A stretch of DNA of 42,114 bases from Reclinomonas americana ATCC 50394 (GCA_048213135.1 PS015828.1:1-42114), one strand, 5' to 3'; positions 3,301-36,599 are shown, numbered from the stretch's first letter. The notes: a model not told the origin generated them from the letters alone. Program-made: numbers and translations.

Positions 3301-4800
3301 TGTTGGTATCGTGATCCATCCATGAATCGCTTGTGAACTCATGGTCGTCCCAGCTGGAAGGGCGAACAAGAACAGAGAGCACTGAGGATACAACTCTGTC
3401 TCGGCTAAATGATCCACTTGCCACAACGCAACATGGTAATGAACGGGAAGTATTCGTGGGCTCGTTGCAATCGTGGATCAGTACGATACGTGGCGTAGAG
3501 AGTTCGATAATCTTCGAGTGTGTCGCTGTATGTGGAGGAGAAGGTCAGGGAAGCTGCATAGCGGAGCATATGAACGACACAACGACAGACGCACGCGCGG
3601 TACGGGTTGGTGCCGTCATCGTCAACTAGGTCGCCAACGCTATTTGGCAGCAAGAAAGGCGGGTGTGCAGCTTCGCGAGTGGGACTCTGAGACACGATCG
3701 CAGGTGGTCAGTGGAGTAAGAGGGCAGATTTCAGATGATCGTATCAAGTAGCAACAAACCGGTGTGGGGCCCACCGCCGGACTACAATCACAAGAACAAT
3801 GGCGTAAACACAACGAAGGGAGCGTGAGTCGCACTCCTTTTTCGATCGGTGCAGCCTCCACACAAATTACTGCACTATATCTTCGCAACGTTTCGTAAAT
3901 GTAATCGCCCAGATGCAGCACAAAGTCCACATCGCGCTCATTGTCGACCAGATCAGTGTAGCCTCCCCAGTGATTGCGAGACCAGTTCTGGCACGCAATC
4001 GTGGCGATCTTCAGCCGCGCCACGGAGTTCGAGCCGGGCGGCGGGAAGGTCTTGAAGCGACCGACCTGTGCGTGGTGCAGAGTGAGGCGTCGTCGCTACT
4101 ATACCTACATCACCGACCGCTTGCAACATTGACGACTGAAACGCACTCGAGAGAACACATTTCCAGCCTGGAACTGGTAGTAGTAGGTGGTGTTGGGCTG
4201 CAGATCGGTGACCTTCTGTCGCGCAGTCATGTAGAAAGAACTCGACGCCGTGACTTTGCGGTCGACAACAAACGGGCCGACAAGCGCAGCACTGCACACA
4301 CACACACAGAGAATGTAAGCAACACCAACAAAAAGTGCACTGACTGCCACAGTCGCAACTTGCTGTCCATTTTGGCACCGTTGCCAGCGATGCTGCTCAC
4401 ACGCAGCGAAATGGCCACACTGGAAACGGAGTCGGTGGGCAGTGGACCTGTAGAGGGCGCATCGAGAGGCAACGCGCGTGTCCACAAGACGACACTGTTG
4501 TGGGTGGGATCGCCCGAGGCCACACTTTGCGGGAACTGCAGCAGGGACATGCATCAAATAATGAAGGAGTGTGTGCATTGACGCTTGTCTGCAACGTTCA
4601 CCTGCCAGTTGCTGCCAGTGGCGTCGGGAGTCGGTGGTGGCGGTGGCGGCGGGGGCGGCGGTGGCGGCGCCGTGTCGGTGCACAGAGCGCCAAAGCGGCC
4701 AGTGGCACAGCTGCCGCAGTTGGTACCGGCAAAGGGGAATGGGCACTTCACGCACGACGACAGTGAGCAAAAGAGAATTTCTCCGAAAAGTACATACACA

Positions 4801-4856
<56 letters not shown>

Positions 4857-5194
4857 ACACACACACTACGACGTACGTACTACTACTACACACACGACAC
4901 CGACCACGACGTCGACGTACGTACGACGGTCGGTACGGTCGGACGACGACACGTACTAGTNNNNNNNNNNNNNNNNNNNNNNNNNNNNNNNNNNNNNNNN
5001 NNNNNNNNNNNNNNNNNNNNNNNNNNNNNNNNNNNNNNNNNNNNNNNNNNNNNNNNNNNNNNNNNNNNNNNNNNNNNNNNNNNNNNNNNNNNNNNNNNNG
5101 TAACGGGAACGGTAACGGGTACGACGTTACACGACGTACGACGAGACGTACGAGACGAAGAAGTAAGTTACTACGTAACTAACGTACTACACAC

Positions 5195-5254
<60 letters not shown>

Positions 5255-6262: not shown

Positions 6263-9813
<3,551 letters not shown>

Positions 9814-12369: not shown

Positions 12370-13151
12370 TCACTTGCGGATCGTGTCGACGAGCCATGCC
12401 ATGGCCTCCTCCAGACCCTCGCCAGTCTCGGCTGAGCATGGCTGGATGGCCCACTTGCGGCCGCGGAGACCACTCAGGTTGAGTGTTTCCGAGATCTGCC
12501 ATGCCATGCCGTGGTGTGAGCATCGACGACAATAACAACAACGACGACACAGCGAACAAACGAGAGACCTCATCAGGTGGCAACGCAGTGACCAGATCCT
12601 GCTTGTTGGCCAACACCAGCAACGGCACTGCGGCCATTTGCTCCTCCTCCAGAATGAGCGCCAGCTCAATGCTGGTCTCCTCGAGGCGGCGACGATCGGC
12701 GCTGTCAATCACGTACACCAGTGCGTCAGTGTTCTCGTAATAGTTGCGCCAGTACGGGCGAATCGATCGCTGGCCTCCAATGTCCCACACGTTCAGCTTG
12801 AAGCCGTCTTGCACCAGGCTCTGCGCACGAATCGTCGTCAGAGAGGAGAGGGGCAAAGAGAGAGAAGGGAGAGAGAAGGAGCGGGAGAGAGAAAGCGAGA
12901 GAGAAGAGATGAGACGAGAGAGAGTGCTCTGATCGACTTGTTCACTGCTGCTCGTACGTCTATTCCCGTTTCTCTGTATCCGCGCACGCGTGCGTGTGTG
13001 CGTGTGTGTGTGTCAGTCTACTGATCGACTTGTTCACTGCAGCTCTCCTATCTTCTTCTCTGTCTTTCTTTCTCATTCTCTCTCATCTCTCTCTCTGTGT
13101 GTGCCTGCCTGCTGATTGACTTGTTCACAGTTACTTCTCCATCTCCTCCTG

Positions 13152-13191
<40 letters not shown>

Positions 13192-13800
13192 TGTGTGTGT
13201 ACCTTGATGTTGAATCCTTGAGTGGGGGTAATATGTGTGGGATCCTCATCGGCCAACTTCTTGAGGCACGATGTCTTGCCGGCATTGTCGAGACCGAGAA
13301 TCAAGATGCGAGCTTCTTGCTCGCTCTTCTTCAGCTTGCGCAGCAATGACAACAGACCCTGAAAACGAAAAGAGAGTGAGAAGGAGAGTGCCAAAGATAA
13401 GTCGGTCATGTCGCACACGCGCACGTGCTCACACATGCGCACGTGCTTGCCTCTTGTGTGTGCGTGTGTGTGTGAGAGAGGTGCATGTGTGAATGTGTGT
13501 GGAGGTGCACAGAGACAACACGTGCAATTTGAGTTCATGCGCGCAAGTGTATGCATCTCTCCCTCTGTGTGTCTTTCCACGTACGCATGCACAACAGTGT
13601 GTGTGCGTCTATGTGCGTGTGTGTGTATGAGAAAGAGAAGAGAGCAGCACACAGCAGTGACAAGAGCGTGTCCGATGGTGGCCATTCTCACACGCACACA
13701 CACGCAAAAGCACATGCACAGCTGCCGCCTTTCTCTCTCTCTGCCACACGCACACACTCTCTTGCACACACACATACACACGACACGCGCAACTCACCAT
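12370..13800 (-). CDS. ARL3: ADP-ribosylation factor-like GTPase 3
   Basis: ATG-only first coding exon (13798-13800), then [83 protein letters not shown] at 12370-12372. Confidence 0.95.
12929..13130. repeat. Three regularly spaced ~20-bp direct repeats (CTGATCGACTTGTTCACTGC) in an ARL3 intron
   Basis: Copies start at 12929, 13021 and 13112 (spacing 92 and 91 bp); the third is CTGATTGACTTGTTCACAG. Confidence 0.85.
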
Positions 13801-17216: not shown

Positions 17217-20200
17217 ATGGCTTCTGCCTCGCAAGCTCACCCGCACGTCGACGAGGTCGACGCGGAGGAGGAAAACCGCCGTTTGGTGGAGGTTTGTCAC
17301 TGCACACTCACACGCTCACACACACATAGACTTGCTTTTGTTGCATGCACTGCATGGAGCGAGACGAGAGACAACAAACAGGCAGTTGTCGCGCAAGTGC
17401 CATCTTGGCCATGTTCCAAGTGACAAGTCACACGCGCACTCTCCCCGCCTCTGTGTGTACTCACGCGTCTCTGCACTTGCTCTTTCTCGTCGCTGCCCTC
17501 CTCGCCCACTGTGCGCGAGTTGCACTTTGCACGCTCTTGCATGCCTGTTCCTTTTTCTTGTACGCGGAACATCTCACCGCCATGTGTGCGTCACCACTCA
17601 CTCGCACACTCTCTTATTTCTCCACCGTGCCTCCCTTCTCGCCACTCCACCTCCTTGTAACTTGCGCGCTCCCTCTCTTTCTCCACGCCACTTGCTTTCC
17701 ACTCGAGTTCTATTTTGGTCACTCTTGTACTCATCTGGTTGCATGACGACGACAACAGGATGCCCAGTCGCGCATGGCTGCGGCTTTTGGTCGCGAGGCC
17801 ATCCTCGCCCTGAAGAGCGCCAAGTACATTGTGTCGGGCCTGAACGGCGTGGGCGCAGAAGTCGGTATGTAAACGACTTGCGCCAAAGAGCAGGTTCCGA
17901 GTCTATCTACTCACGTGCTGCTGTAACACAGCCAAGAACATCATGCTGACTCGCATCGACACCATTGTGCTGCATGACACTCGCCCGACCACGTTCATGG
18001 ATCTCTCGTCGCAGGTACTCACTTGCTGCTGCTCAAACACGCACAATCACACTCTCACGTATGTCTCCTTGTGCACACACAGTTTGCGCTGTCGGAGGAC
18101 GACATTGGCAAGAACCGCGCCGAGGCCTGCTTCACTCGCATGCACGAGCTCAACCCGGCCATCAACGCTCACCTCGGTGCGTGTCACTGCCATCCCAGCT
18201 CCGCTTTTCTCTTTGTTTATTGTTGACGACGCTTTGTTGTGTGCAGAGACTGGCGACCTGTTCGACTTCCTGAAGAAGTCCGAGAACCTGCACCCAGACG
18301 GCCGCTCCATCTACGACTGCCTGGTGGTGCGTACCACTGTCCCTTGCGCTTGCCTTGTCTCTTTTCAACTGCCACTCACATTGTATGTCACAGATCTGTG
18401 ACACCAACATTGATGCCGACCTGCTGGCGCTCACCGACTGGTGCCACAACAAGGGCCTGAAGGTGGTGATTGCACTGTCGCGCGGTGAGTGGTGATGCTG
18501 GCTTGAGGTCAGAGAGGAGAAAATGGAGAATGCTGAGTGGGGGCATGCACACACAGGTCCGTTTGCCATGCTGTTTGCGGACTTTGGCCACGGTTTTGTG
18601 TGCAACGATCTGAACGGCGAGGAGTTCCAGGAGCTCCCCGTGCAGATGATTGTTGTGTTGTGTGTGTGCTCACAAGCAGCTCGGGTGTGTTCTGACAACC
18701 ACTCGGGGCGTGATTGCAGGAGGCCATCCCGGTGTACGACGAGGCCGGCCACCGTGTCGGACACAAGGGTGTGGTGCGCATCCGCGTGGCCGACGAAATC
18801 TGGAGCCACGGTCTGCAGGACGGCGACACTGTGTCGTTCAAGGTGCTGTGTGTGTTGTGTTGCGTGTGGATTACCTTCCAGTTGCTGACACTCGCTTGTG
18901 CAGAACGTCGACGGCATTGAGGGTCTGAACGGCAACGAGTTCCAAGTCACCATCATTGACCGCACTGCGTTCTCGATCGGCATGATCCCGCACGAGGGCG
19001 AGTTTGGCGGCAGCGGCTTTGTCAAGGGTGTGAAGAAGCCGGTGCCATTCTCCTTCGTTGCGTCGACTGCGAATGATCGCGTTCCGAGTTTGTGCGCGTG
19101 TTGCTCATTCTCTTCCTTGTTGTTATCACAGCGTCCGCTCCGCGACGTGCTGCAGAACCCGGGCCCGATTGTGCAGTCGGATCTGATGAAGATGTTCTCG
19201 TGCAACTCGGAGTCGCTGCACTTTGGCTTCTTGGCGCTGTCGCACTTTGTGGCGGAGAACGGTCGTCTGCCGACTCCGGGCAATGTGGCCGAGGCGGAGC
19301 GTGTGGTGCAAAAGGCGGAGACGATCTTTGCGGCCACTCGTGTGCAGTTTGTGCCGGGCTCGCCGCTCGTGCCGGTGCGCTCAGAGATGCCATTCGAGGA
19401 GGTGAACAAGGACCTGGTCCGCAAGCTGGCGCTGTACTCGCAGGGCAACTTGAACCCGATGGTGCGTCGCGATGAAGGATGAGAAGGAAAGAATGACGAG
19501 CGCTGAACTCCTTGCCCCACAACAGGCGTCGGTGTTGGGAGCTCTTGCGGCGCAGGAGGCACAAAAGGCGGTGACGAAGCGGTACCAGCCGCTGCACCAG
19601 ATCATGTACCTGGACTTTGTGGAGGTGCTGCCGGAGGAGCCGCTGTCGGAGGCTGAGCTGGCACCGATTGGAAGCCGCTACGACGGACAGATTGCGGTGT
19701 TTGGCAAGGCTGCTCAGGAGCGCATTCTGCGTCAGAAGATCTTCATGGTCGGCGCTGGTGGTGAGTTTGTATGCGAGAAAGACAGAAACGAGTGTTTCTG
19801 TTGCTCGCTTGCTGATTGGCGATGCGTTTTCTCCCTGCAGCTCTCGGTTGCGAGTACCTGAAGGACTTTGCGATGATGGGTGTGGGTTGCGGGTGCGTGT
19901 CACTGCTGTTGTGTACTTCTTATTGCTGTGGACTCACTGCGTTTTTTTGGTGGCCAGCGGCGGTGCCATCACGGTGACCGACATGGACACGATTGAGGTG
20001 TCGAACCTGAATCGCCAGTTCCTATTCCGCAAGCAGCATGTCAACGTTGCGGGCTTTGTGTGCATGTCGATCAGATCGCAAATGCGATGTTTTCTGATTG
20101 TTGTCGGTGGCTGTCTTCGCGATATCAGAGCTACAAGGCTGCGGTTGCGTGCCAGCAAGCGAGCAACATGAACCCGAATATGCATACCACTGCGCTGCAG

Positions 20201-23200
20201 CAGATGGTGGCACCGGCCACTGAAGGTGCGTTGCAAATCCGCAGGTCATGTCTCTGTGACGTAGCCCTTGTGTCGTAACACTTTTTGTGTGGGTGCATCA
20301 GGCCTGTTCGATCGCGCCTTCTGGGAGGACAAGGATATGGTGGTGAATGCACTGGACAACATCCAGGCTCGCCTGTACGTCGACGACCGCTGCGTGCAGT
20401 TCCGCAAGCCGCTCGTTGAGGCCGGCACGGAGGCCGTCAAGTGCAACTGGTGTGTGCATGTATTTTCCTGATGTTTTTCCGTTATCCTTCGCTCACTAAG
20501 CCTTGGTGTGCACAGCTGTGTGAGTACACTGGCTGTTTGGGAGTGTGTCCAGCGTGTCGTGGCTGGCAGTGTCTCACACCACGTTTTTGTGTCCGCTGTA
20601 CAGATTGTGATTCCGGGCTTCTCGGTCAACTACGGCTTCCATCGCGAGATTGACCCGCCAAAGGCCAAGAAGTGCACTGTGACCAACTTCCCTGTGCGTA
20701 ACTTGCTTGTGTAGGTGTGTAACTTGATTGTGCGTTGCATTCTGACCTTCGGTGTTGTCTTGTGCGCAGTACGTGCGTCATTGAATAACCCTTGTACCTT
20801 TATTACCAAGCGAATGACTCACGTTTGTTTTTTCCCCTCCTTGCTCTTGATTGCATACAGCTGGTGAGTTGGCCCATGTGTTGCGCGATGGTCCTGTCAC
20901 GTGTTGCTTAGTTAACCCTTCGAATCGCAGATCGAGCACTGCATCCAGTACGCGCGCGAGATCACGTTCCAGAAGCTGTTTGTGGACTGCCCGGAGGCTG
21001 TGGCCGAGTACCGCAACAACCCGCAGGCCTTCCTGGACAAGGTCAAGGAGATGCCGGAGACGGAGAAAGTCGATGTTGCGTTGAGGCGATCTGTATGTCG
21101 GAGTCGACGGGAAGATACTGATGTGGTGGTGCGTCGCAGGTTGCCCGCAAGCTGGCTGGCATTCTGAGCGCCGAGAACCGCTGCGCCTCTCTGGAGGACT
21201 GCGTGGCGTGGGCGCGCAACCTGTACGAGGAGGAGTTTGTGCACTCGGCGTTCCAGTGGCACTCGCTGTACCCTCGTGATGCCAAGAACCGCGACGGTGA
21301 GTCTTGTGCCGGCATTGCCTGCCATGTGAGTTGATGACTTGCTGACTCGGGGCATTATTGCAGGCACGCCGTTCTGGGGTGGCGTCAAGACTTACCCGAC
21401 GGAACAGCGATTCGACCCGGCAAACCCGCTGCACGTGCAGTTCCTGGTGCGCGACAATGTATTGTTGGCTTGTTGCAGTTGCCCTGCTCATCCCCGGTTG
21501 GTGCACAGGTGACGGCGACTGCGCTGCGCGCCAAGACTCTCGGCATTGCTGTGCCGTCGGAGTTCCGTCTGGATAGCCGCCGTGGAAAGGCGCTGGTGCT
21601 GGAGATCGCCTCGCGCGTCAACGTGAAGGCGTTCAGCAACTCGGCGGTTTGTAAAGCGTGTGGTGGTGGCGCGTGTGTCGAGTTCCTCATACCGTTGGTG
21701 AATGCGATGAGCAGAAGGCATCGACCGACGGTGAGGACGAGTCGAACGTGTCGCTGGTGCAGGAGTTCGACCCGAACGCCGTGCTGAGCTCGCTCCCGTC
21801 GCCGAGCGACATCTCGCCGTCGGTGACCGCCGATGAGTTCGAGAAGGACAACGACCTCAACTACCACGTGGACTTCCTGATGGCCGTGTCCAACATTCGT
21901 GCCATCATGTACCGCATCGACACGGTGGACCGCCTGAAGATCAAGCTCGTTGCCGGTCGTGTGATTCCGGCCATTGTGACGAGCACGGCTCTGATCTGCG
22001 GCTACGCGAGCTTTGAGATGCTGAAGGTGTGTGTGGATTTTCGGATGAGATTGCACTGAACTTGTCGGTTGGCTGACTGCTGGGTGCAGATCTGGTCTGG
22101 CCGGCCAAACTCGGCGATTCGCGAGTCGACGGTCAACCTCGGCACGCTGATGTTCACCGTGCAGGAGCCGATGGAGGCGCCGAAGGTGAGAGTGTCTATT
22201 GTGTGTGCCTGCTTCCTTCGGAGCGGTAGGGTGATGACTGATTGACGTGCTTTGTTCAACGTACAGTGGAGCTACAAGGGTGCGAGTGGCGACCACACGT
22301 TCACGCTGTGGGACAGCGTGCATGTGGACGCGCGTGGTCTGACGCTGAAGCAGGTTTGTCGTTGCTGTTGCTCTCCTCGCTGTTGCTCCTTGTCTCTGTC
22401 GCTCTCCTCGCTGTTGCTCTGTGTCTCTATCGCTCTCTTCGCTGCTGCTCTGTGTCTCTGTCGCTCTCTTCGCTGCTGCTCTGTGTCTCTGTCACACTCC
22501 TCGCGGTTACTCTGTGTCTTGTGTCGCTCTCCTCGCTGCTGCTCTGTGTCTGTGTCGCTCTCCTCGCTGTTGCTCCGTGTCTCTGTCGCTCTTCTCGCGG
22601 TTGCTCTGTGTCTCTGTCGCCCTTCTCGCTGTTGCTCTGTGTCTGTGTCGCTCTCCTTGCGGTTGCTCTGTGTCTATCGCTCTCTTCGCGGGTGCTCTGT
22701 GTCTCTGTCGCTCTCTTCGCTGTTGCATTGTGTCTGTCGCTCTTCTCGCTGTTGCTCTGTGTCTGTGTCGCTCTCCTTGCAGTTGCTCCGTGTCTCTGTC
22801 GCTCTCCTCGCTGGGCGTACTGCACACAGGCGTCCTCACCAATGCTATTCATTCCTGGCAGTTCTTGGACAAGATGAAGGCGGAGCAGGAGCTGAACATC
22901 GAGACAATCTCGGTGGTGCGACAGGACTACGTGGTGTGGTTTGGCGCTCGCGGGGCGCTGGACAAGCCGCTGCTTGAGCTCGTGGAGAATATCGTGAAGA
23001 AGAACAAGCTGCACGTGGACCCGTCTGGCATTATCGAGTTCCTGGTGTCGGCACCGTTGCGTAGTGGCCGTCTGCACCGCGCTTGGTGAATCGATTTTGT
23101 CTCACTCACGCGCGCGTGGTGATTTTACTGCAGTGATGGCTCCGTGGTGAAGAAGCTGGATCAGGAGGGCAAGGAGTACGAGGAGGACGGACCGGAGCAT

Positions 23201-23569: not shown

Positions 23570-26500
23570 TCATCGGTCCAACATGGTGGGCCATGCAGGC
23601 GCCCGAGCCCCGTCCATTTCCGAGGCGAGTTGGTTGGACGCGAGGAGTGTGTGCTGAGAACCACCGACTGTTGCTCCACAGTCGGGACAGCGGCTGGTTT
23701 GCATGGCCCCGCCGCACTCGCCGATAAAGTATGGATGTCCGTTGGGGCATTTGAACCAGTGTCCCGCCGCCGACGAACCACCCAGCTCCTGTCGCATGGC
23801 GGCCACGATCATCTGTCGTTCCTCCTCGGACAAGCGATTTGCGATGGCTGCAAGAGCCTCCAGGCCTTCGTACCTCGGGTTCAACTCTCGCAGCTGCGAG
23901 AAAGTCGTCAGCGACTATCATGATATCACCTGTACACAAGAAAGCAAAACGCGAGCAGACGGACGCAACAAAACGAAGCAGTCGCTTTGCTTTGTCAACG
24001 TTGGCATGCTGTCCAGACGACTCCATGACAATCCAGTGATGCAGGGCGCGACAACGGTGCTCCACCATCACTTGATCGTCAGCCGCCACACGCTGCAGCC
24101 GAAGCAGGTGGTGAGTGAGCGACAAGTGCTCGCCGAAATGAACACCGCTACACACCTCGTACTCTGTGGCGGCATCGACGCGACGGTTCGCGCGTTGATA
24201 CGCCTCGGCCAGTTGTAGGCGTGCATCGTGGTGGCTCGGAAGCATGTCCAGAACGCGTTTGAAGTTTTTGATGGCCGCCTTCAAGTTGTTTCTGCACACC
24301 TCGCTGTTATTTTCAAGCCGCCTACTCTCACACATTCCGTGAACTGTGATGCGCAACGAATCCAATGCCGCAAAGCCGGCTGCCATACAACGCTTGCTGT
24401 TGAGACGACGCTTGACTTTGTCAATGTCGTCCAGCGCGTGCCGAATCGAGGCTGAATACCGAAGTGTGCGACGCACCGATGCCTGCGGTCACCAGCATCT
24501 GAGACTAAAGTAGCCGTGGGCACGAGCAAAAGAGGCACATTGGCACGCAACTCGGCAGCTCGGACACTTTGGGAATCCGATTGCCTTGTGCTCCGACGCA
24601 TCGGGATCGTCCTGTTGCAATCCTTTCATGTACTCGTCGAGGCCGGTAACCTCGAAGACGTGATGACAGTCGACAAGCTCGACAAACAGTGCGTCTCCAT
24701 CAAACTGCATCCATGCGGACAGGTGTCAGCATAACACGAAAACAAGCGTCGCAGACGACAACCGCGTACCTCAGAGAGAGGCATCATGTGAATCGGCTCC
24801 TCCATGTCACCGTTACAGATGCGACACGCTCGCGGACATGGTTCGCCACACACACCAATACACGTATGACCACACTCAAGGACCTCCTGCGATGGTACGT
24901 GTCAAACCGGATGAAAGCATAGAGGATCGATTGGTATATCTATAGCATACGAACCGCACAGGGACGCATGCATGGCGGTCGATCACACGGGTCACTGCAC
25001 AGTTGGTGACAGGCATGGTGTTCGCAGTGGTACGCACACGGTTCGCCGCATGGCACGCAGATCTCGCCGCAGGCCTTCTGGCATCGCGAGTGCACACAGA
25101 AGTTTTCACATGGCAGAGCGCATGGCGGGCAGTCGTCGCAGCATTTCTGTCACTCGGTGTGAGATGCTTACTTACAAAAGCGCGCCCGACAGCGCAAGAA
25201 GCTAATAACGCAACCGACTGACACTTGTGGCCACACAGAAGGTACCGCTTGCACGGCTCAGTGCACGGTACATGCTGACGACCACCATGACACTTGCCAC
25301 ACGTCCCCGCACACGAATGACCGCATCGCTCCAGCACATGTCGACAGGGCTCACGACACTCGATTTTCTCGAGTGGCACTGAGCACGCCACGTAGGCCGT
25401 GTGTCCACACGGAAGCAGTCGGCGCACGTTGTGCCCGCAAGGGGCGCACTCCTCGCTGCACTTGCTCTGCATGATAATGACTCACTCTGAGCACTGCACG
25501 CTGCGAGCAGCGACTGCCAACCGCTACTGCACAGACTGCTGAAACACACCTGGCACTGATGTCCGCAGGAGAGGATCTTCGGACACGAATGCTGGCACTT
25601 GTCGAATTCTGCTGGGTCAAGGTGGCACGGCACCAGCTGGGTGTGTCCGCACGAAGGAATGACCTTGTCGACCAGTTCCATACACTTCCCCTCAATTACA
25701 GCCTTTGCATTCCAGCATGGCACAGTGAGACTTGGGAGTGTATGTGCTGTGAGAAGAGAGGGGAAACGACGCCGACGATCGAAACAGCCACAAATTCACC
25801 TGTGTTCAGCCGGACAACTGCGCGGAGTCACAGTCTTTTCCTTCGTGCACGGATAGGACTCGCACGATGCAGCGTGGCAGCACAGCGTGCACATGTGACC
25901 ACATTCTCGTCGCCCACCGCACGGTAACTTGCAGCCGCCGAGAATCACGTCATCAAAATCACGCGATTTGCTGACCGACGTGACGTTCTCTGCAACACGA
26001 ATGTGAGCAAAAAGCACGCATGGGGCACCCTACAAACAAACGACATGTTCCAAACCTGGATGGTGGTGACATTGCAGAGACAGCGCAGGTCCACACGCAT
26101 GTTGCTCGTCAAATTCACGGAATACTTGCCGCCACAGACCGCAACCCTGAGACTCAGACAACAACTTGCGGTTGCCGATCACGTACATGGCTGCGTTTGC
26201 GCCGACAACAAGAATGAGAACACCTCCATCGCAAGATACTGACTGCAGACTGTACCATGTCGGGCGCGAGAGAGCGCGACACAGATGCGGTTCTCGATCT
26301 TGACGAATCCAGTGACGCCTTCCATGTTGGATCGAACAAGCGACAACAGGATAATATCGTTCTCTTCGCCCTGGTAATCGTCGATCGTGGACACACGAAC
26401 ATGTTGAATGTCAGACGTGCCGGGAGTGTTCGCACGATGGCGGCGGAGCGCATCTTTGAGCTCCATCACTTGTCCCGTATCTGTGACACCAGCACACTTA

Positions 26501-29500
26501 GCTGCGGCGCGGAAAACACTCTTGAGTAGTACCCTCACGCAACAAGTAGTAAGCAAAGTGATGCGGTCGGCCGTGTAGTCGCCTTGCTGCAAGATATAGC
26601 AGCAAAGTCGCACCAAGAACTCGGCCTCGTGAGGGTTCTTCTTGCTGCCCTCTCCGGTCTCCTGGTGCTCGTGCGTCACGAAATAGAGATTGCGCGAAAT
26701 GCCGCGAACAGACGGGTACTCCAGCACGGACTCGTGATCCGTGAGTCGCGGATAAATGGGTCGCACCAAGCTTCGCAATGTGCAATGGGCACCAACACAC
26801 CCTCCTAACACAACACTCACGCAAGTACGAACCGACTGATCTCCGGACGCATACGATGCTGATTGGACAGAGTCTCGTGCCCGTGACCGACTGCCACGAG
26901 GCGTTCTGCGCGTGTGAGACCGTCATCAAATTGAGTCAGTACAAACACATCGCATGAAGCAAGCGGGCAACTCACCAAACAGGGAGACATCGTGCTTGTG
27001 GACGCGAGAGAGGTGATAGTCGGCAGCATGAGGTCTTGCAGACATGAAATGTCAGCGCTTGACAAAGAACGGTGTGCACAAGAAGAGAGCAAACCGAAGT
27101 TGCTTGTGGTCGCCGATTAGCACACATTGTTGAACATCTTCGAACAGGGCGCAGACGGCATGCGCTTCAAAGATTTCAGCAGCCTCCTCGACAATCACCA
27201 CGGACGGCGATATCTCGTGACTTGACAGCAAACTCGCGTACTTGGCAGCAGCTGCAAGCAACTCAATACTCTCAGCAAAACAACCCAAACCCACTGTGCA
27301 GTCAACGTGACAAACCAGTCGTGGTCATGGCAATCACTTTGGCGGAAGCCATAGCTCTGCACATTTGCACGCACACAGAGAGTGCAACAGTGAATTTGAG
27401 AGACCAGGTGTCATTGTCATCTTGTTGTCACACGAAACTCAATGTCACGCTCCATGTTCAGCTCTTCCAGCTGGTGTTGCGCGTCGAGGTACCGTTGATT
27501 GTAGTCGTCGATTAGCGGACGCAGTACGTCCATCATGACTTGCTGACGCAGTTGACGATGCAAGACCTTGCGAACGACAGGCGAGAGCTGCCAGAGATCG
27601 TCGACACCAGCGAAATCTACGTTGGCAGCAGGGGCGGCATCAGAATTCTGCTGTGAAAACTCTCCGACAAGATGATCAACGCAACCAGTTTCCATCATCA
27701 GCTTGACGGCTTCGACTGCCTCGGCTTCGGCTTCGGCTATGGAGGGAAACACAATCAACAACAGAAAGTCGGCAACGCACTATTCAGCCGTTCGGTACCA
27801 TGCAGATCCGCAGGAACTGTACAGTGACGACCAACATTAGCAAGGACGAATGCAAAACAACACCAAAGAAAGGCGCAAGAAACATGACAAACCATCGCCT
27901 GGAGCTTCTCTCGACACCGCTGCGACCGGAGCGACATGTGGGTGTGATGTATGGACATAGGAGACAGAACAAGAACAACCCCTCTTACCGTCGTCGTTTG
28001 CCTCCGCTTGCTGCAGTGCAAGCTCAAAGTCTGCAAACTTGCGATCCGAGAACTGTTCCACATCGCGGTCGTACCAGCCATCGTCATCACCGTCGTCATA
28101 GTCGTCATCATCGTCAAAGGCTTTCGGAATGATGGTGAAAGCGCGCTCACATCGACGATAGGCAGCGGCCAGCTCTCGTGCCTTGTCTGGCGAATATCCG
28201 AGCCACCGTGCGACGATGGCCATTTCGTCCATCGGTTGCTGCCGATCGCGCTTCTTGGAAAGAATCTGTTGGCCTCGCTGAACAAAGTACTGTCGAAGGT
28301 CCGATGGAATTCGGGTTTGCTCCAGATTGCACACCGGAAAGACATACAGCGAGGCCAAGACCTGTATCTGCTCCTCCAGTTGCTTGGACATCTGACGCAG
28401 TTCGTACATGGTCTTCCCGCGACGACCCGTAAGCTTCACCTGCCGTACCGCTTCCATCAGAGTGTACGGCTTCAGGCGCTCGCTTCGCGACCGGCCACCA
28501 ATTCGAATCACGCTGGTTGTAGTGTCGAGAATCGCCTCCAGGAACTGATCGATTGCGTGATTGGTGTAGCACACGCACAGGATTGGCCGATTTCGCAGGT
28601 TGACCGCACGATCCGTGCCCTCCGAGTTGGCCAGCAGCAGTCGAGTGAGAACGAGGCCGATGTACGTCTTGCCGGTGCCAGGTGGGCCTTGAATCAGTGG
28701 CATCTGAGAATTGAAGCACAGTTGCAGCGCAGCAAGTTGACTGGGGTCGAGACCAAGTGGAAGGTCCAACCACGTCGGCTGCCGCGGATTGTGTCGACGG
28801 CGGACAAGGGGAATCAGCTCTCGGACCTCGGGAGACATCTGCAAACACGGCGTGTTGACCGGTCAGTCAACCTCTCGAATAGAAAGTATTCAATTGACAA
28901 CGAGCGCCCGCACCAGAGTTGAGAAGTCCATAGGCGCAGCCGTCAGGTAGCCAGGCGGAATCAACGCGCGTCGGTCATCGGCCGAAGCCAGCAAGTACGG
29001 ATAGAAGAGTTGAATGTCGTTCAACATGGCCATCGACTGCAGTCTACGCAGTACGTGCACCGAGGCCTCGAAGTAGCTGCTGGTGGACTCGACCTGTGAA
29101 CAGAAGAGACACACATGAATACGCGGTCGGCAACTCATCCCTGCGCCAATCATCACACTTCTCGCGTTCCGTACCATCGTAAGAGTCTCAACATCGGCAC
29201 AAGGCAACACGAGATCACCACCGGTGACTCCAAGGATCTGCAAATCGACATCCTCGCCCTTGCAGCGAGTCACCACTCCACAAATGACGTGCTCCTCAAA
29301 GCGGTCGGCGCTCAACGCGACGAGAGACCCGCCCTTCAACAGATCGCGCTCAGGGCCCTTCTTCGGTCGATTCGTCTGCTTCCTCTTCGACTGGTTTGCT
29401 TGCACAATCTTGAAGTGGTAGCACAAGCCCACGCGTTGCACCAGAGTCGGTCCTGTGCAGACAACGCGGTCGAAGACGCGCAAGCTGCGTGGAGGTCGGC

Positions 29501-31725
29501 GGTTGGCTCGAGTAGCTTTCCGCAACTCTTCGATGCCTTCACGAAGAGGTCGCATGCAGTCCTCTCGCTGCATCACCAAAGGAAGAAGAGCAAAGGAGAA
29601 CGGTACCATTTTTGAGAAACCGCAACAACACACAAAGGCGTGAACAATCACATTACAACTGACCATGACGTAGAATTGCAATGCCAAGTACTGGTCAATC
29701 GACTCTAGTTTGTGCGACGTGGTGATGTTGGTGTTGAGGGCCGCAGCGACTTGATCCAAGCGGCGGTTGTCAATGAGTTCCTCCAGCTCGGGGAAAAGTG
29801 GCACCGTTCGAAACTCCTCTGCTCCACGACTCACGGTGAGTACGGCAAGGAGCGTGGCACACCGCCTATGAATTCGCACTCACCAGTGAGGCCGTCGAGT
29901 GAGGCCGGCTGATCTGCGCCTGTCGCCTGCCTGGCGTTTGGTTGTCGACGAGCTCGCTGCTGCCGCAGAACTTCCTCCGCAGCATCTCGGGCCGCAAACA
30001 ACCGATCACTGACCGCGATGATAGCATCCATCGTGACAGCAGACTGTCCGACCCTACTTGCGCTGGAGTCCGTCAGCCAGTCTATCAATCTTCGAATGCT
30101 GTCGACGGGAATCAACTCCAGAGGGTTTTCAACACGCCCAAAAACGGCGACATACAGCCGAAGCAGGTGGAACAACAATTGGAAGTCACTGACTTGCATC
30201 TCGTTGCTCTCAATAGCGTCCTGTGTTGCACAAATTCCACACGCACACATGTACTCAGCATTGCATCGACCGACTCGTAGCTAAGTGTTGACTCACCTGC
30301 AAATACAGCCGGATGCTCTGAAGGCGACCGGTAAACTTGCGGCATGCCCACAATGCATGCACCAGCTTGATACATGCATGTTGTTGGTAAGTTGACGCCT
30401 CCAGCAGGAGAGGAACGATCTCCACCAGCCGGTCGAAATCCTCGTCGGAAGGGCAGGCACTGCCAGCGAAATTCGCCTCCATTGCCGACATGAACTCGGG
30501 CGCCGTCAGATCGAGTATCACCTCGTTCGCGACGGAAGAAGTGAGCGCAGCATTTGATGCGCCTGCTTTCACCCGCTTGAAACAGTCTCGAAGACGAACG
30601 GCGGGTGGCATTGGACCTGGAGGGAGGAGAGCTAACGTGAGCACACCACATGGCAGTCGCAGTGGCGTGCTTCACAACGAACTCACGTGCTGGCTTTCGC
30701 TGCTTCTCAGACGGAGAGGACTTTGAAGCCGAGGTCGGAGGAGATCGAGCAGAGGACGCTGAGACGGAGGAGGCGTGTTGAGAAACAAGGCACCCGATGC
30801 ACGGACGGCATGGTAGTCACCTTGAGCTCGAGAGGAAGCAGCCGCAGGGGGGCTCTTCGCGCTCCCATGAGCGCGCGGTGTGCGTGGGTCTGCATGTTGT
30901 GTGAGTGACGATAATGCATTGTGAACATTGTGTGTCAACACACCTGCTGACGAGCTGCCGACCTGCTTGCGAGGTTTCTTGTGGGCATGAGTGGCCGGGG
31001 GAGCAGCAGCGGTGGCCTGCTGCGCATGCGATGCAGGCGGTTTCGCACGCTGAGAAACTTTGGAGGATCCGGACGCTGCAGGTGCATTCCCCACGCTGGG
31101 TTCTGCTCGTCGCCGTCAGCGAGAACACAGCGGTAGAAGGGCGCAGTGAGCACCCTGAACCTCCCACACACACGATATCAACGATCGGGAAGAATGAGAC
31201 GAATGAACTCACTTTTGCGAACAGGACCGGCGGTGGGTATTGGGGGACGTGACGACGATGCACTCGCTCCCACGTTTCCCGATGCACCGCCGCCGGCTGC
31301 AGCGGTGGCAGTCGGGGTCGCTGTGTTGGTGGCACGCACGTTCACAGTCTGCGTGAGCCTGCCCTTCTCCAGCGCCTCCGCCACCAAGCCAGCGAATACC
31401 GGCTTACTGAGGACAGGAAGTGCGCGCGCACTCGCACCCTGCGCAGCAATATCCTGCATGGTTAGTGCGCCGAGTACCGTAGTAAAACACTTGGCGAGCG
31501 CGATGCAATCGCAACAGCATCGTCGTCTTGGCCAATCCTCATCTGAAACGCGTCATAACGGGAATGCTTCGCGACGTGGTCGCGCAACGATTGCCACTCT
31601 GCAGCTGCGGCACTTGCTGTTGCTGCGCTGTCGTCGAGCTCCTTGCGCCAAGGCGGTATACCAACATCGCACTCAAAGTACACCGTGATGGTGGCACGCG
31701 TGGTGCCACCGCTCCCAGAGGCCAT
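23570..31725 (-). CDS. ZNFX1: ZNFX1-like SF1 (Upf1-type) RNA helicase with NF-X1 zinc fingers, RING-like domain and C-terminal RZ finger
   Basis: FRTVPLFPELEEL..QYLALQFYVMREDCMRPLREGI; Walker A IQGPPGTGKTYIG; CYTNHAIDQFLE; VIVEEAAE; LIGDHKQLRP; QHRMRPEIS; TIDDYQGEENDIILLSLVRSN; NRICVALSRAR. These are followed by repeated CGH-type NF-X1 fingers, RING-like CRIC..DCHHVFE..KCPSCR and RZ GHWFKCPNGHPYFIGECGGAMQTSRCPDCGATVGG. The start codon at 31725 is tentative. Confidence 0.92.
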
Positions 31726-31968: not shown

Positions 31969-33341
31969 ATGGCTGTGAGCTTGTCGACTGAGGCCTTTGC
32001 GACGGCGATTCTGCACGCGTCCGCACACCCCACACGCGCCGTATGCGGAGTGTTTGTGGGCACACAATCGGGAAAGCACGTGGAGGCGCGCCACGCATGC
32101 CCTCTCTTCCATCTCTGGCTCAACTCGTCGGCCATGCTGGAGGTGGCGCTGAGCATGGTGCGGGAGAAGGGAGAGAGGGAGGGAGGGAGAGGGAGAGGGG
32201 ATGTGGGGGAGGTGGGAGAGAGGAGTGTGTGCAAGAGTGTGCAGGAGTGTGCAAAAGTGTGTGTGTGTGCAAGTGTGTGTGTGTGTGCNNNNNNNNNNNN
32301 NNNNNNNNCACACTCTCTCTCTCTCTCTCTCTCACGCCCACACACATTTCTCTTGTTCTGAGAGACAGAGACAGCCACATTCTCACCTTTTGAACGCATT
32401 TGAGAGACAGGAAGGCTGACGCATTCTCTCCCGTTCCCTCGCGTTGGGAAGTAGACGCGTTCCCTTCTGTATCTCTCTCGCTCACTCTTGTCCTGGGAGA
32501 CAACCGCATTTACTCACTCTGTCTCTAGCGCACGCACTCCCTCACTCAGAGAGATAAGATAACAGACTCGTTCTTTCCACTTTCTCTCTCACTCGCACTC
32601 TCGCACACGTTCTCTCCTCTCCTTCTCACACTCTGGGGGCAGAACAACAGGCACGATTCACTCACCTCCCTTCTCATGCATTCGGAGGGACAGGAGGCAG
32701 ACACCTTCCCCGTTCTCTTTCACACACACACACACGTTACCCTCACGTTGCTAAGCAGACGCATTCCCTCCTCTCTCTCTCACACACACGCACACAAACC
32801 CTCACTCGGAGAGACAAGCAGACGCGTACCCCTCACCTCCTCTTCCTCTCCACTCTTTGGTACACGTATCCCTCACTCGGAGAGACAGGAAAGCAAACAC
32901 ATTTTATCTCGTTCTTTCTCTTTCTCGGAGAGTACAACGGGCTAGATTCTCCTTCCCTCCCTTCCTCTCCCCCTCTCCCTCCCTTCTCTACCCCCTTCCC
33001 CTCACGCCCTCTTTCCCCCCTCCCCAGGTCCACAACGAGGAACTTCACCTCCAACAAGATGTGTTTCCGGGCACCGTTGCGTCATCCCTCACCCCCCCCT
33101 TCTCCTGTCCTCCCTTCTCCCCCTCCCTCTCTTTCCTAATTAGCGTGGCCCACAGCTGTACGTCGAGAAGCGCTTGCTCGACGCCGTCGAGTGGCTGGGA
33201 GGGGCGACAGTGAAGAGTGCGGTGGCAAAGACGGCCGCGGTACGCAAGGCCCACGTGTCGGTGTTTGATTTCGACGATCACTTTGCCGACGTGTCGCTGG
33301 ACTGGAGGAATCCGCAGGTGGCTGAAGCGCTGCGAGTATAG
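31969..33341 (+). CDS. EMC8: ER membrane complex subunit 8/9 (UPF0172, MPN-like); middle exon(s) probably in the gap
   Basis: MAVSLSTEAFATAILHASAHPTRAVCGVFVG..ACPLFH..MLEVAL and C-terminal VFDFDDHFADVSLDWRNP; TAG at 33339-33341. Confidence 0.85.
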
Positions 33342-33457: not shown

Positions 33458-36400
33458 TTACAGCACCGGCGTGACGGCGACAGCCATGGACTCCTGTGCG
33501 TGACTGGGTGAGAATAGCGTGCGTGAGCAGGAGTTGATGTGGCTGTTTGCGCAACGATGGCACACTCGTCGGTTCCGCGCTGTGGCACAATGTGAGTCAT
33601 GAAGCGAAAGACAAGGAGAGACAAAAAAAGGCAGAGTCGACTTACCCGAATGCGGAAGAAACCGTCCTCGCCCCAGGCAGTCTGCGCGAGATGGCAGTGA
33701 GAAGTGGGGGAGCAAGAGGCAGCATGTAAGAGAGAGAGAGAGACAAACCCCTGTGTTGTTGTGGACATTTGCGACGATGAACGCAAAAGAAATGTGAGCA
33801 GACGGGGCATCTTCAGCTGTCTGTCAAGCGAGCAACTCACCCCTGCAATCACACGAGTGAGACATCGAACAACAAGCACACATTGTGGACAAAGAGACAC
33901 TCACCAGCTGTTCTTGACCTTCCAGAACTGCGACGATGACGAGGAGACTCGTGTTAGTCAAGAAGGGAAAAGGATACATGGCGAAGCGAGCAGTGACTAA
34001 ACCTTCACGCCATCGGATGTGGTTCCGTATCCGACGATTACCACGACTGCAAAGCAAAGAGAGAGGAGTAAGAGGAAGGGGGATAGTCATGCAGGCACGA
34101 TGGCACGTCCGCAAACCGTCTGCGCAAATGACGACACGTGAGTGGTGCGCAGCATGTCAATCAATAACGAAAGACGCAACGATTGGTCAGCTGGAACGGG
34201 TTGAAGGTCACCAGGTGCGACACTGCGGTGTGCGAGTACACGCCACCCTGCCAGGCAAGCTTCAGTCCATCAAACGACACACTCTAACCATCGACAACGC
34301 CACACACCTTGTAGTTGTGCAGATCGGGGTACACCTCGAACGAGACAGCAATCGGGCCATTCGCCACCAACTCCTCCATCATGTTCAGCTCCGTGGCCGC
34401 CCCGTAGTAGCCACCAATGTAGTGGTAGTCGCTGTGCAACGGAGCATGTCAGAGGGAGGGAGAGAGTGACGAAAAAAGCGTGGCGAAAGGGAACGAAACG
34501 AGGTCCAGTGCAGGCGCGGGTTGGAGCAGCGCTTCGAGCACGACACCTACAGCCATGGATGGTGTGAGAGGTGACAGAAGCGGAGATCTCTCACATCGTG
34601 CGTCCTACACACACCTCCGTGGCAACATACGGGAAGCAGCTCTCCTCCACGTGTCCGAAGTCGTGGCCGTACTGCGCGGTCGCACGAAGGGAGTGCAGTG
34701 AGCGACGACAAAATCACACAGGGTGACAAGAAACCCGACCTTGCCAGCAGCCAGGTACGGGAAGCCGCCTGCGTCAACACATTTCGTCAGTCTGGTGCAT
34801 TCGGCACAAGAAGAGAGGTGACAACACACACCGTCGCAGCCGTGCGAGTAGACAGAGCACGAGACAATGTTCTGAGTACTGAGGATGACCTACACAAATA
34901 CGCGCGCACGTGCGCACGTGAGCAAAGCACTCAAGTCATACACTTCAAGCAAGGCAGGCAGGCAAACGCACCGTGTTCGTGTTGTTGGAGAGAATGCGCA
35001 GGCGAGCCTCGAGTGTGGCCGCCGACGCAAAGGCGTAGCAACTGCCGCATTGCTGTGTGGTGCACGGTGATGCGCGCGCATGAGCAAGTCAGAGCGGGGG
35101 AGTAAGGGAGGGAGGGAGGGAGGGAAAGAGCGCGACTCACTCCCTGGTTGCTGTTGGCAAGACGAGAAAAAGAAGCAGATGAGCTCTCAGCGTGAGAGAG
35201 ACAGCAATCGCGCGACAGGCACGCACCGGATGGGCGACACGTAGCTCACCTGTACAAAATAACACAATCAGCACGTGAGAGACTGCCATAGCACCCCCTG
35301 CATTTCGTGTGCATCACGCAACTCCATTGACATTGGTCCAGTCCCACGAGTCCGGCAGCGTCGACGACAGCGACGTGGCCGCGTTCTCCGCCAACTCCGG
35401 CTTCTGCGGCTTGGTGACAGCGGCGGCCAACTCCTGGCGCGCATACGAGCCACCGGCACGGCGCTCCATCTGAACAAGGCAGCGTGGTGAGCTCAAGTCC
35501 ACAGCTGTGATCCGAGTCACGCTTCACGCAACATCGCCAATGGTCAACCCGAGGTGCTCGTCGTAGGTAGTGGCCGTCCACAGGCTCTGCGCCTTGTTGA
35601 TGGCGTCCACAAACTCAAAATCGTGCTCGTACCTATGCACACGCCATGTGAGTCGACGACATGCACGCGCGAGGCATCACGAAACACAACTTGAGCTGGG
35701 CGCGGAGCGGGTCGACCACGGCCAAGTCGAGGCTCGTGCGGAGCGGCACCTTGGGCGTCTCCGGCGCGCTCTGCGTCTTGATGCCAAAGTAGCAGCCCCA
35801 GTTGCCCGGCTGCAAGTGCCACGAGACGAATGAGCGACACAACCAGTGTGTCTTCTTCAAACGGCCTCACCGCATACTGCTCTCCATCGTTATGGTACCA
35901 CCCCGGCAGCGTCTCGGAGCACACAGAGGTCACATGGCCACTCGGATCGGTCACCCACTTGGAGAAGGCGAAGAAACGACGACCGCCGACCTTGACTGCA
36001 CTCACGCTTGAGAACAATGACGCAAAACACAATGACAAGCGAGAAAACAAACCGTCAAACGACCTGTCATGAGGGGGTTTACATAACAACAGAAGGTGAT
36101 TAGTGAGTGTGCAGTGCGCGCCTGCTTTTGTTACACGAAACATGGAATAAATCATGGTCCAGAAGCCCTGATTGCCAGCACTGTCTGTGACCTTGTCGGG
36201 GTAATCCAGTGTGACTGTGTACGTGTTCTCCACCTATTGTACACGCATCCACTGAGCACACACACAGTGGAGAAGAACAAACAAGCGCGCGCGCAACAGT
36301 GAAGGGATTGGTGCAGTTGATGTTGTCACGAGTGAAGCCGGCCGGACCCAAGTGGAAGGTCCACGTGCCACGCACCTGTGACACGCGTGCACAGTGAGTT

Positions 36401-36599
36401 GCAGTCTGTGAGAGAGACAGACAAAGAGAGACGCAACGTCCTCGTACATGCAGTTTGCGGGGGTCTGTGACTGCGTGTGTGAGCGAAAAAGATGATCACA
36501 AGTGCGTGCATGACACGCAACATCAGCCACCACTGCATACGGAGCAGCAGCGACACAAAACACCGCGAGGAACACGAGAAGAAGCGCGCAAAACTTCAT
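33458..36599 (-). CDS. CTSC: Cathepsin C (dipeptidyl peptidase I), papain family with exclusion domain
   Basis: Signal peptide, then [129 protein letters not shown]. The model requires microexons. Confidence 0.95.

Follow-up and report, generated by a model that had tools for sequence, protein, structure and literature searches.

How can an intact protease be encoded by a gene whose reading frame closes two bases into a tryptophan codon of an active-site motif and reopens 223 nucleotides (nt) further downstream? This question is raised by a cathepsin C (dipeptidyl peptidase I) gene located on the minus strand of a 42,114-nt stretch of DNA from Reclinomonas americana ATCC 50394 (GCA_048213135.1 PS015828.1:1-42114), which was analyzed at its full length and is referred to as the window in the following. 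A first-pass annotation of the window had proposed that two consecutive exons of 2 nt each lie within the interval. Based on the gene model, homologue comparisons and the enumeration of splice routes, the mature messenger RNA (mRNA) of this gene is indeed quite probably spliced through two tandem 2-nt exons, both reading GG.

Architecture of the Two Predicted GG Exons

Exon 21 (33905..33927, minus strand; 23 nt), reading TTC TGG AAG GTC AAG AAC AGC TG, closes after two bases of the Trp codon, and exon 24 (33646..33681, minus strand; 36 nt) opens with ACT GCC TGG and encodes TAWGEDGFFRIR. Within the interval separating them, microexon 22 (GG, 33841..33842, minus strand) is predicted to supply the third base of Trp and the first base of Gly, and microexon 23 (GG, 33749..33750, minus strand) the second and third bases of Gly. 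The corresponding introns on the same strand are intron 21 (33843..33904; 62 nt, phase 2; GTGAGT...TTGCAG, with CTCAC 15 nt from the 3' end), intron 22 (33751..33840; 90 nt, phase 1; GTGAGT...ACACAG, with CTCAC at 44 nt and TTCAT at 27 nt from the 3' end) and intron 23 (33682..33748; 67 nt, phase 0; GTTTGT...GCGCAG, with CTCAC 16 nt from the 3' end). Both microexons are bounded by AG and GT, and each side carries a complete intron featuring a donor, a branch-like site, an acceptor and a normal length.

Joining of exon 21, both GGs and exon 24 yields KNSWGTAWGEDG, and the spliced model predicts the complementary DNA (cDNA) sequence AACAGCTGGGGGACTGCC across exons 20-25. When exon 21 is joined straight to exon 24, the junction reads TG|A, which is a stop right after KNS, and retention of a single GG shifts the frame. 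The first-pass annotation had described the same anatomy, namely the exon ends, the lengths of the three introns and the positions of both GGs, which was recovered in every detail; moreover, its statements on the direct join and on the use of one GG agreed with the products of the joining variants.

Identification of the Gene as Cathepsin C

The gene model was built by hand on the minus strand from 36599 to 33458, with frame and coordinates being checked by script. Supported by homologues and Pfam, the coding region (33458..36599, minus strand) comprises 26 exons and 25 GT-AG introns, and the coding sequence of 1443 nt corresponds to 480 codons followed by TAA, is divisible by three and contains no internal stops. 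The deduced product is colinear from end to end with nine homologues of more than 300 residues, showing identities in the range of 45-54%, and the alignment is free of gaps at all five tiny exons of the gene (11, 10, 3, 2 and 2 nt).

Regarding domain content, the cathepsin C exclusion domain (CathepsinC_exc, PF08773) was recognized in the frame 35547-36233 on the minus strand (E 9.8e-15, 55.3 bits at a cut-off of 27), and Peptidase_C1 matched the frame of the exon encoding the catalytic Cys (E 2e-5). Exon 17 alone, searched against solved structures, retrieved human and rat dipeptidyl peptidase 1 at about E 6e-10 and cathepsin B at about E 0.1; in a word-indexed protein search the same exon led to 11 distant cathepsin C proteins, including carriers of PF08773 and PF00112. 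The 49-residue exon 9 gave no matches in the word-indexed protein collection. The nearest named sources of cathepsin C are distant protist transcriptomes, namely those of Heterolobosea sp. BB2, Gefionella okellyi, Lapot gusevi and Stygiella incarcerata.

The product is ordered as a signal-peptide-like N-terminus, DTPANC representing the start of the exclusion domain, a pro-region, and the motifs CGSCYAF, TNHVV and KNSWG, which we take to be the sites of the catalytic triad residues Cys, His and Asn. Each of the three motifs aligns with the homologues, and the His as well as the Asn-Ser-Trp-Gly stretch hinge on the predicted microexon splicing. The deduced protein is solidly assigned to cathepsin C/dipeptidyl peptidase I of the papain family C1. 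The cathepsin C identity put forward in the first-pass annotation is likewise upheld by the exclusion domain, Peptidase_C1 and the full-length colinear alignment with the nine homologues.

Evaluation of Possible Splice Routes

In order to evaluate the route through both GG exons, all routes leading from exon 21 to exon 24 were enumerated under strict settings, i.e., GT-AG introns with a minimum length of 40 nt and no more than three introns. Four routes preserve the flanking peptide without closing the frame, and among these the route through both GG exons is the only one restoring NSWG; the remaining three place 10-50 unrelated residues in the position of Trp-Gly. Under relaxed settings, for which GC donors were also allowed and introns had to be at least 30 nt in length, 104 routes were obtained, and NSWGT at the length found in homologues resulted from the use of both GGs only. 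The earlier claim that both GGs together restore the papain-family NSWG motif was therefore borne out, since this is the only route without an insertion in the enumerations. Retention of intron 22 as part of a 94-nt exon was also considered and rejected, as the frame hits a stop, and this product is missing from the strict routes.

Conservation is in line with the restored motif. NSW, followed by the same spacing to the WGE motif, occurs in all nine homologues, and NSWG in eight of them. Scoring against a profile built from 12 homologues gave 661.2 bits for the product of the route through both GG exons, followed by a variant containing Glu-Leu-Leu (654.4 bits), the other open routes (638.6, 628.9 and 628.6 bits) and the broken products, i.e., the frameshift caused by one GG (593.6 bits) and the direct join (587.6 bits). 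Furthermore, the three exons downstream of the microexons are in frame, conserved and reach the homologous C-terminus.

To estimate how often such a route arises by chance, the 223-nt interval was shuffled 20,000 times with its dinucleotide composition preserved. A GT-AG route with 4 nt remaining was present in 3,109 of the shuffles, and a route leaving GGGN in 4 of them. The hexamer AGGGGT occurs five times on the minus strand of the 42-kilobase (kb) window, two of these occurrences being the GG-exon sites. According to splice-site weight matrices derived from the remaining 22 introns of the gene, the internal acceptors (introns 21 and 22) rank first and second among the six AGs of the interval, and among its 18 GTs the internal donor of intron 22 ranks first and the other one is tied for ranks 2-3. 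The intron lengths of 62, 90 and 67 nt are inside the range of 57-90 nt observed for this gene; a single intron of 223 nt would be approximately 2.5 times as long as the longest one.

Several observations weigh against splicing through both GG exons. The route inserting three residues scores just 6.8 bits lower in the profile comparison, and one of the nine homologues carries NSWS, indicating that a Gly is not indispensable at this position. With 90 nt, intron 22 is longer than any other intron of the gene, and the 44 nt between its best CTCAC and the acceptor exceed the distance found in most other introns. Moreover, a scan of the whole window for AG-N(1-3)-GT with a donor-like sequence returned 55 sites versus 47.9 +/- 6.5 in shuffles. 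This count is near the shuffle level, and consequently gives no sign that such tiny exons are common in the genome; the scan missed the gene's own 3-nt exon because the donor at that position is outside the motif used. Finally, near-identical proteins were absent from the protein collections searched with exon 9 and the ubiquitin-E1 frame of the window.

The first-pass annotation had also claimed that standard aligners fail at this locus. This was confirmed for tblastn, which, when run with a homologue, left residues 404-426 (exons 19-23) unaligned, implying that ordinary aligners miss the GG exons.

Alternative Explanations

The microexons may be used part of the time, with skipped messages being degraded, so that the tandem pair would act as a control of enzyme output at the level of splicing. 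This idea complements constitutive splicing through both GG exons and does not replace it. In its favour, all skipping products are out of frame or stopped, and a 1-nt exon is reported to be alternatively used in some plants (PMC8831610). The sequence contains no pointer to regulation, however, and the RNA structure of the region is unremarkable, with folding z-scores of +0.52, -0.18 and -0.74 for introns 21-23 and of +0.85 for the 282-nt region. Regulation of this kind is regarded as distinctly unlikely.

The Glu-Leu-Leu variant corresponds to a route that keeps the first 62-nt intron, followed by a 13-nt exon (33842-33830) and a 148-nt GC-AG intron (33829-33682), giving NSWG-ELL-TAWG without a second microexon. 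It is open, retains NSWG and reaches 654.4 of the 661.2 bits obtained with both GGs. Nevertheless, it depends on a GC donor, which none of the 25 introns of the gene possesses, and on an intron length beyond the 90 nt that none of them exceeds; in addition, an insertion at this position was found in none of the nine homologues, and the splice sites ranking second and third in the interval would be bypassed. Use of this GC-AG route is accordingly considered very improbable.

Equally improbable is a dead or dying gene, in which the 223 nt would be one intron or would stay unspliced, the message would stop after KNS, and the AGGGGT pair would be coincidental. The stop produced by the direct join speaks for this explanation. 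On the other hand, no further stop or frameshift was detected across the 26 exons, GT-AG is kept in all 25 introns, the three downstream exons are in frame and conserved up to the homologous stop, and a GGGN route arose by chance in only 4 of the 20,000 shuffles mentioned above.

An assembly or sequencing artefact such as a false insertion or duplication is extremely improbable: the window is a gapped draft with runs of N at 4961-5099, 6553-6656 and 32289-32308, but the closest gap is located approximately 1.1 kb past the stop codon, the three introns are not copies of each other or of other introns, and an artefact would not give rise to splice signals fitting together in such a way that a conserved motif is restored.

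Proposed Splicing Mechanism

For splicing through both GG exons, the following mechanism is proposed. The locus would represent a cathepsin C gene that is intact and functional in an intron-rich eukaryote. The Trp-Gly of NSWG would be assembled from four pieces (TG + GG + GG + ACT...) as introns 21-23 (62, 90 and 67 nt), all of them ordinary GT-AG introns, are removed separately. Each of them would be recognized by the major spliceosome under intron definition by virtue of its own donor, a CTCAC-type branch-like motif and a CAG acceptor; this mode is suggested by introns that are short, tightly sized and equipped with signals of their own.

At both microexons, the acceptor AG is located 2 nt from the next donor GT. 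U1 small nuclear RNA pairs with the exon positions -3 to -1 of the donor and with the first bases of the intron. Since this segment overlaps the upstream AG, the factors for both sites presumably cannot sit together, and adjacent sites that are not co-occupied imply that the three introns would have to leave one after another. Ordered splicing under intron definition can thus be reasonably inferred. The removal most simply would proceed from 5' to 3' during transcription, each step placing the next GT directly after a G-rich exon end. Each of TG, AG and the microexons has a G as its last base, so that the donor context GGG|GT would be unchanged by removal of the upstream intron; for this reason the sequence itself does not prescribe the order of removal.

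Other splicing modes were evaluated for the three introns. Their donors GTGAGT, GTGAGT and GTTTGT differ from ATATCC and GTATCC, which are the consensus of U12-type (minor) introns. Zero-nucleotide recursive splicing and nested (twin) introns are not in agreement with the two bases that are present between AG and GT at both sites; because the direct join creates a stop, both 2-base pieces must stay in the mRNA, so that neither of these modes applies. Recursive splicing at the AG|GT ratchet points of Drosophila removes very long introns stepwise, with nothing being kept. The arrangement described here resembles these points in that an acceptor adjoins a donor and a 5' splice site would be regenerated at each step; it differs in that 2 nt are kept per point and the introns are 62-90 nt in length.

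Two further candidates were rejected. An RNA structure bringing the sites together is not indicated, since folding energies are no better than those of shuffles, and an origin of the introns as copies of a mobile element did not emerge from an all-against-all comparison of the 25 introns, in which the best matches were low-complexity stretches of 8-23 nt. A search of the window with Rfam at gathering thresholds returned no matches.

Further Predicted Microexons of the Cathepsin C Gene

In the predicted gene structure, tiny exons are the rule. The lengths of exons 1-26 are 78, 27, 78, 92, 11, 125, 119, 100, 147, 23, 10, 81, 58, 29, 57, 47, 124, 67, 3, 44, 23, 2, 2, 36, 24 and 36 nt. The 3-nt microexon ACG (34117..34119, minus strand), located between introns of 61 and 70 nt, is predicted to complete the codon of the catalytic His (AAT C|AC G|TC GTG, encoding N-H-V-V), and the cDNA predicted by the model reads AATCACGTCGTG over this exon. 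TNHVV is found in seven of the nine homologues, the remaining two carrying TNHAV and TNHCV. Two of the three catalytic-residue motifs encoded by the gene rely on predicted exons no longer than 3 nt.

Moreover, a 10-nt microexon (CAACCAGGGA; 35141..35150, minus strand) completes R-N-Q-G just 5' of the catalytic Cys motif, and an 11-nt microexon in the exclusion domain (36053..36063, minus strand) gives ...IYS-MSFD-VKV... in the deduced protein. The splice sites bordering the 3-, 10- and 11-nt exons are of the same type, and the alignment with the homologues would contain a gap if any of these exons were left out. Their presence in the same gene suggests that the GG pair represents the extreme end of a gene-wide pattern. 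At the 3' end of the gene, the last intron (33494..33555, minus strand; 62 nt, GTTGCG donor) joins ...ECAI to ESMAVAVTPVL-stop, as in the C-termini of the homologues; without its removal, the frame continues into unrelated sequence. The 3-, 10- and 11-nt exons and the last intron had been missing from the first-pass annotation.

For intron 1, alternative CAG and ACAG acceptors were observed 6 nt apart at 36465-36471 on the minus strand, both being in frame. Use of the upstream acceptor would place an additional Ser-Gln N-terminal to the conserved beginning of the exclusion domain, and the downstream one was picked by homology.

Intron Density and GTTGCG Donors

The cathepsin C gene contains 25 introns in 1443 nt of coding sequence, corresponding to approximately 17 introns per kb, and the median exon length is about 45 nt. 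It looks several times more intron-dense than its neighbours: two mapped neighbouring genes have roughly 3-5 introns per kb, and tblastn blocks of the ubiquitin-E1 gene range from 78 to 732 nt.

GTTGCG was assigned as the donor of seven of the 25 introns in the model (36521, 36437, 36297, 35532, 35322, 34180 and 33555, minus strand). This start fits poorly to the usual donor consensus and is not preceded by G at the junction. Within the span of the gene, all seven occurrences of GTTGCG on the same strand are predicted donors. In the whole window the hexamer occurs 71 times versus 44.7 +/- 6.3 expected, a number reached by none of 100 shuffles, and its strand tends to match the strand of the genes. 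GTTGCG possibly represents a lineage-specific donor class.

A more far-reaching interpretation would be that the spliceosome of this lineage has no practical lower limit of exon size and that the cathepsin C gene underwent a local burst of intron gain, in which new introns were repeatedly inserted at G|G sites, three of them within one GGGG run, forcing an obligatory, order-dependent relay of three steps across 4 nt, with GTTGCG being the footprint of the intron-creating process. This scenario is tentative and rather unlikely.

Comparison with Known Ultra-Short Exons

Ultra-short exons have been described for plants and fungi. In Arabidopsis, a constitutive 1-nt exon of APC11 was demonstrated by expression assays (PMC4674806). 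Similar to the GG exons, it is located between ordinary introns, is essential for the frame and was overlooked by annotation, and its authors also proposed intron definition and a stepwise, recursive-like removal because both introns are not spliceable at once (PMC4674806). The differences are that APC11 is a plant gene with a single 1-nt exon and experimental proof, whereas two consecutive 2-nt exons are deduced from sequence in the present case. For the Fusarium P450 CYP621A, a 1-nt exon (AG|G|GT) within the Gly codon of a conserved motif is confirmed by RNA reads (PMC12940212). The logic leading to its detection was the same: the flanking exons were aligned to homologues, a base was missing in a Gly codon, and AG-G-GT was present between two introns. 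In contrast, CYP621A features one 1-nt exon that is kept across 24 genes (PMC12940212), and here a single gene would carry two 2-nt exons.

Long-read annotation of Coprinopsis cinerea revealed 13 exons of 1 nt, 57 exons of 2 nt (in 50 genes) and 27 exons of 3 nt, and leaving out such exons often creates a stop (PMC12230235). This microexon-rich genome resembles the present case in containing 2-nt exons but is that of a fungus. The number of 57 two-nucleotide exons in 50 genes permits several per gene, and adjacency is unstated in the passage reporting these counts (PMC12230235). In plants, exons of 1-15 nt are widely misannotated, and the rice gene Os08t0562700 possesses adjacent microexons of 5 and 12 nt that were validated by reverse transcription PCR (PMC8831610). 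The latter are neighbours as the GG exons are, with the difference that they comprise 17 nt together versus 4 nt here.

The fact that exons of 1-3 nt are proven by cDNA in other organisms lends support to the splicing of both GG exons (PMC4674806, PMC12940212, PMC12230235). Exons of 2 nt are therefore no novelty, and it is the tandem arrangement that is unusual. The first-pass annotation, in which tandem 2-nt exons were called very unusual, was overstated, as exons of 1-3 nt are documented, among them 57 of 2 nt in Coprinopsis (PMC12230235). Phrase searches of the literature, not extending to the Coprinopsis supplements, yielded no account of tandem 2-nt exons or of three introns within four bases, and likewise no microexon account for cathepsin C with this arrangement and no GTTGCG donor class; a further literature search brought up studies of animal microexons only.

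Provided that the junctions are confirmed by cDNA, three introns would interrupt four consecutive bases within an active-site motif. The locus could then serve as a natural model of splicing under intron definition at an acceptor and a donor that are separated by just 2 nt, and of the order in which neighbouring introns have to exit. For annotation, a gene predictor skipping exons 19-23 would report a truncated enzyme or one with a frameshift, so that a pseudogene could be annotated where the protease is intact; a gene with exons of 2, 3, 10 and 11 nt therefore represents a compact benchmark for microexon-aware annotation.

Further Features of the Window

Among the other genes of the window, an Arl3-like small GTPase gene was identified at 12370-13800 on the minus strand, its best matches among solved structures being Arl3 (E ~1e-35). 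The gene has three introns (439, 382 and 73 nt) in approximately 0.54 kb of coding sequence, and its first coding exon consists of ATG alone. Its two long introns are full of CA, GA and CT microsatellites. The presence of an Arl3-like gene suggests a flagellated or ciliated organism.

Pfam searches of open frames furthermore assigned a very divergent ubiquitin-activating E1 (17768-22191, plus strand), a PhoD-like phosphatase (2136-4854, minus strand), a TPR protein (8530-9810, plus strand) and a ZNFX1-like helicase featuring AAA_11 and AAA_12 (26182-29879, minus strand). The E1 frame gave no matches in the word-indexed protein collection and 14 matches in a full HMMER search, the best one showing 59% identity over 93 residues.

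Regarding repeats, a minisatellite with a 31-nt unit (14.6 copies, 84% match) is located at 22365-22813, just beyond the last E1 match, and dinucleotide arrays of CT, CA and AG are numerous elsewhere, e.g., at 4803-4853, 5195-5252 and 6756-6869. The N gaps listed above characterize the window as a scaffolded draft, and a G-rich repeat with the unit CGGGGTAACGGGTAA (2.3 copies) is located at 6691-6724 beside the second of these gaps.

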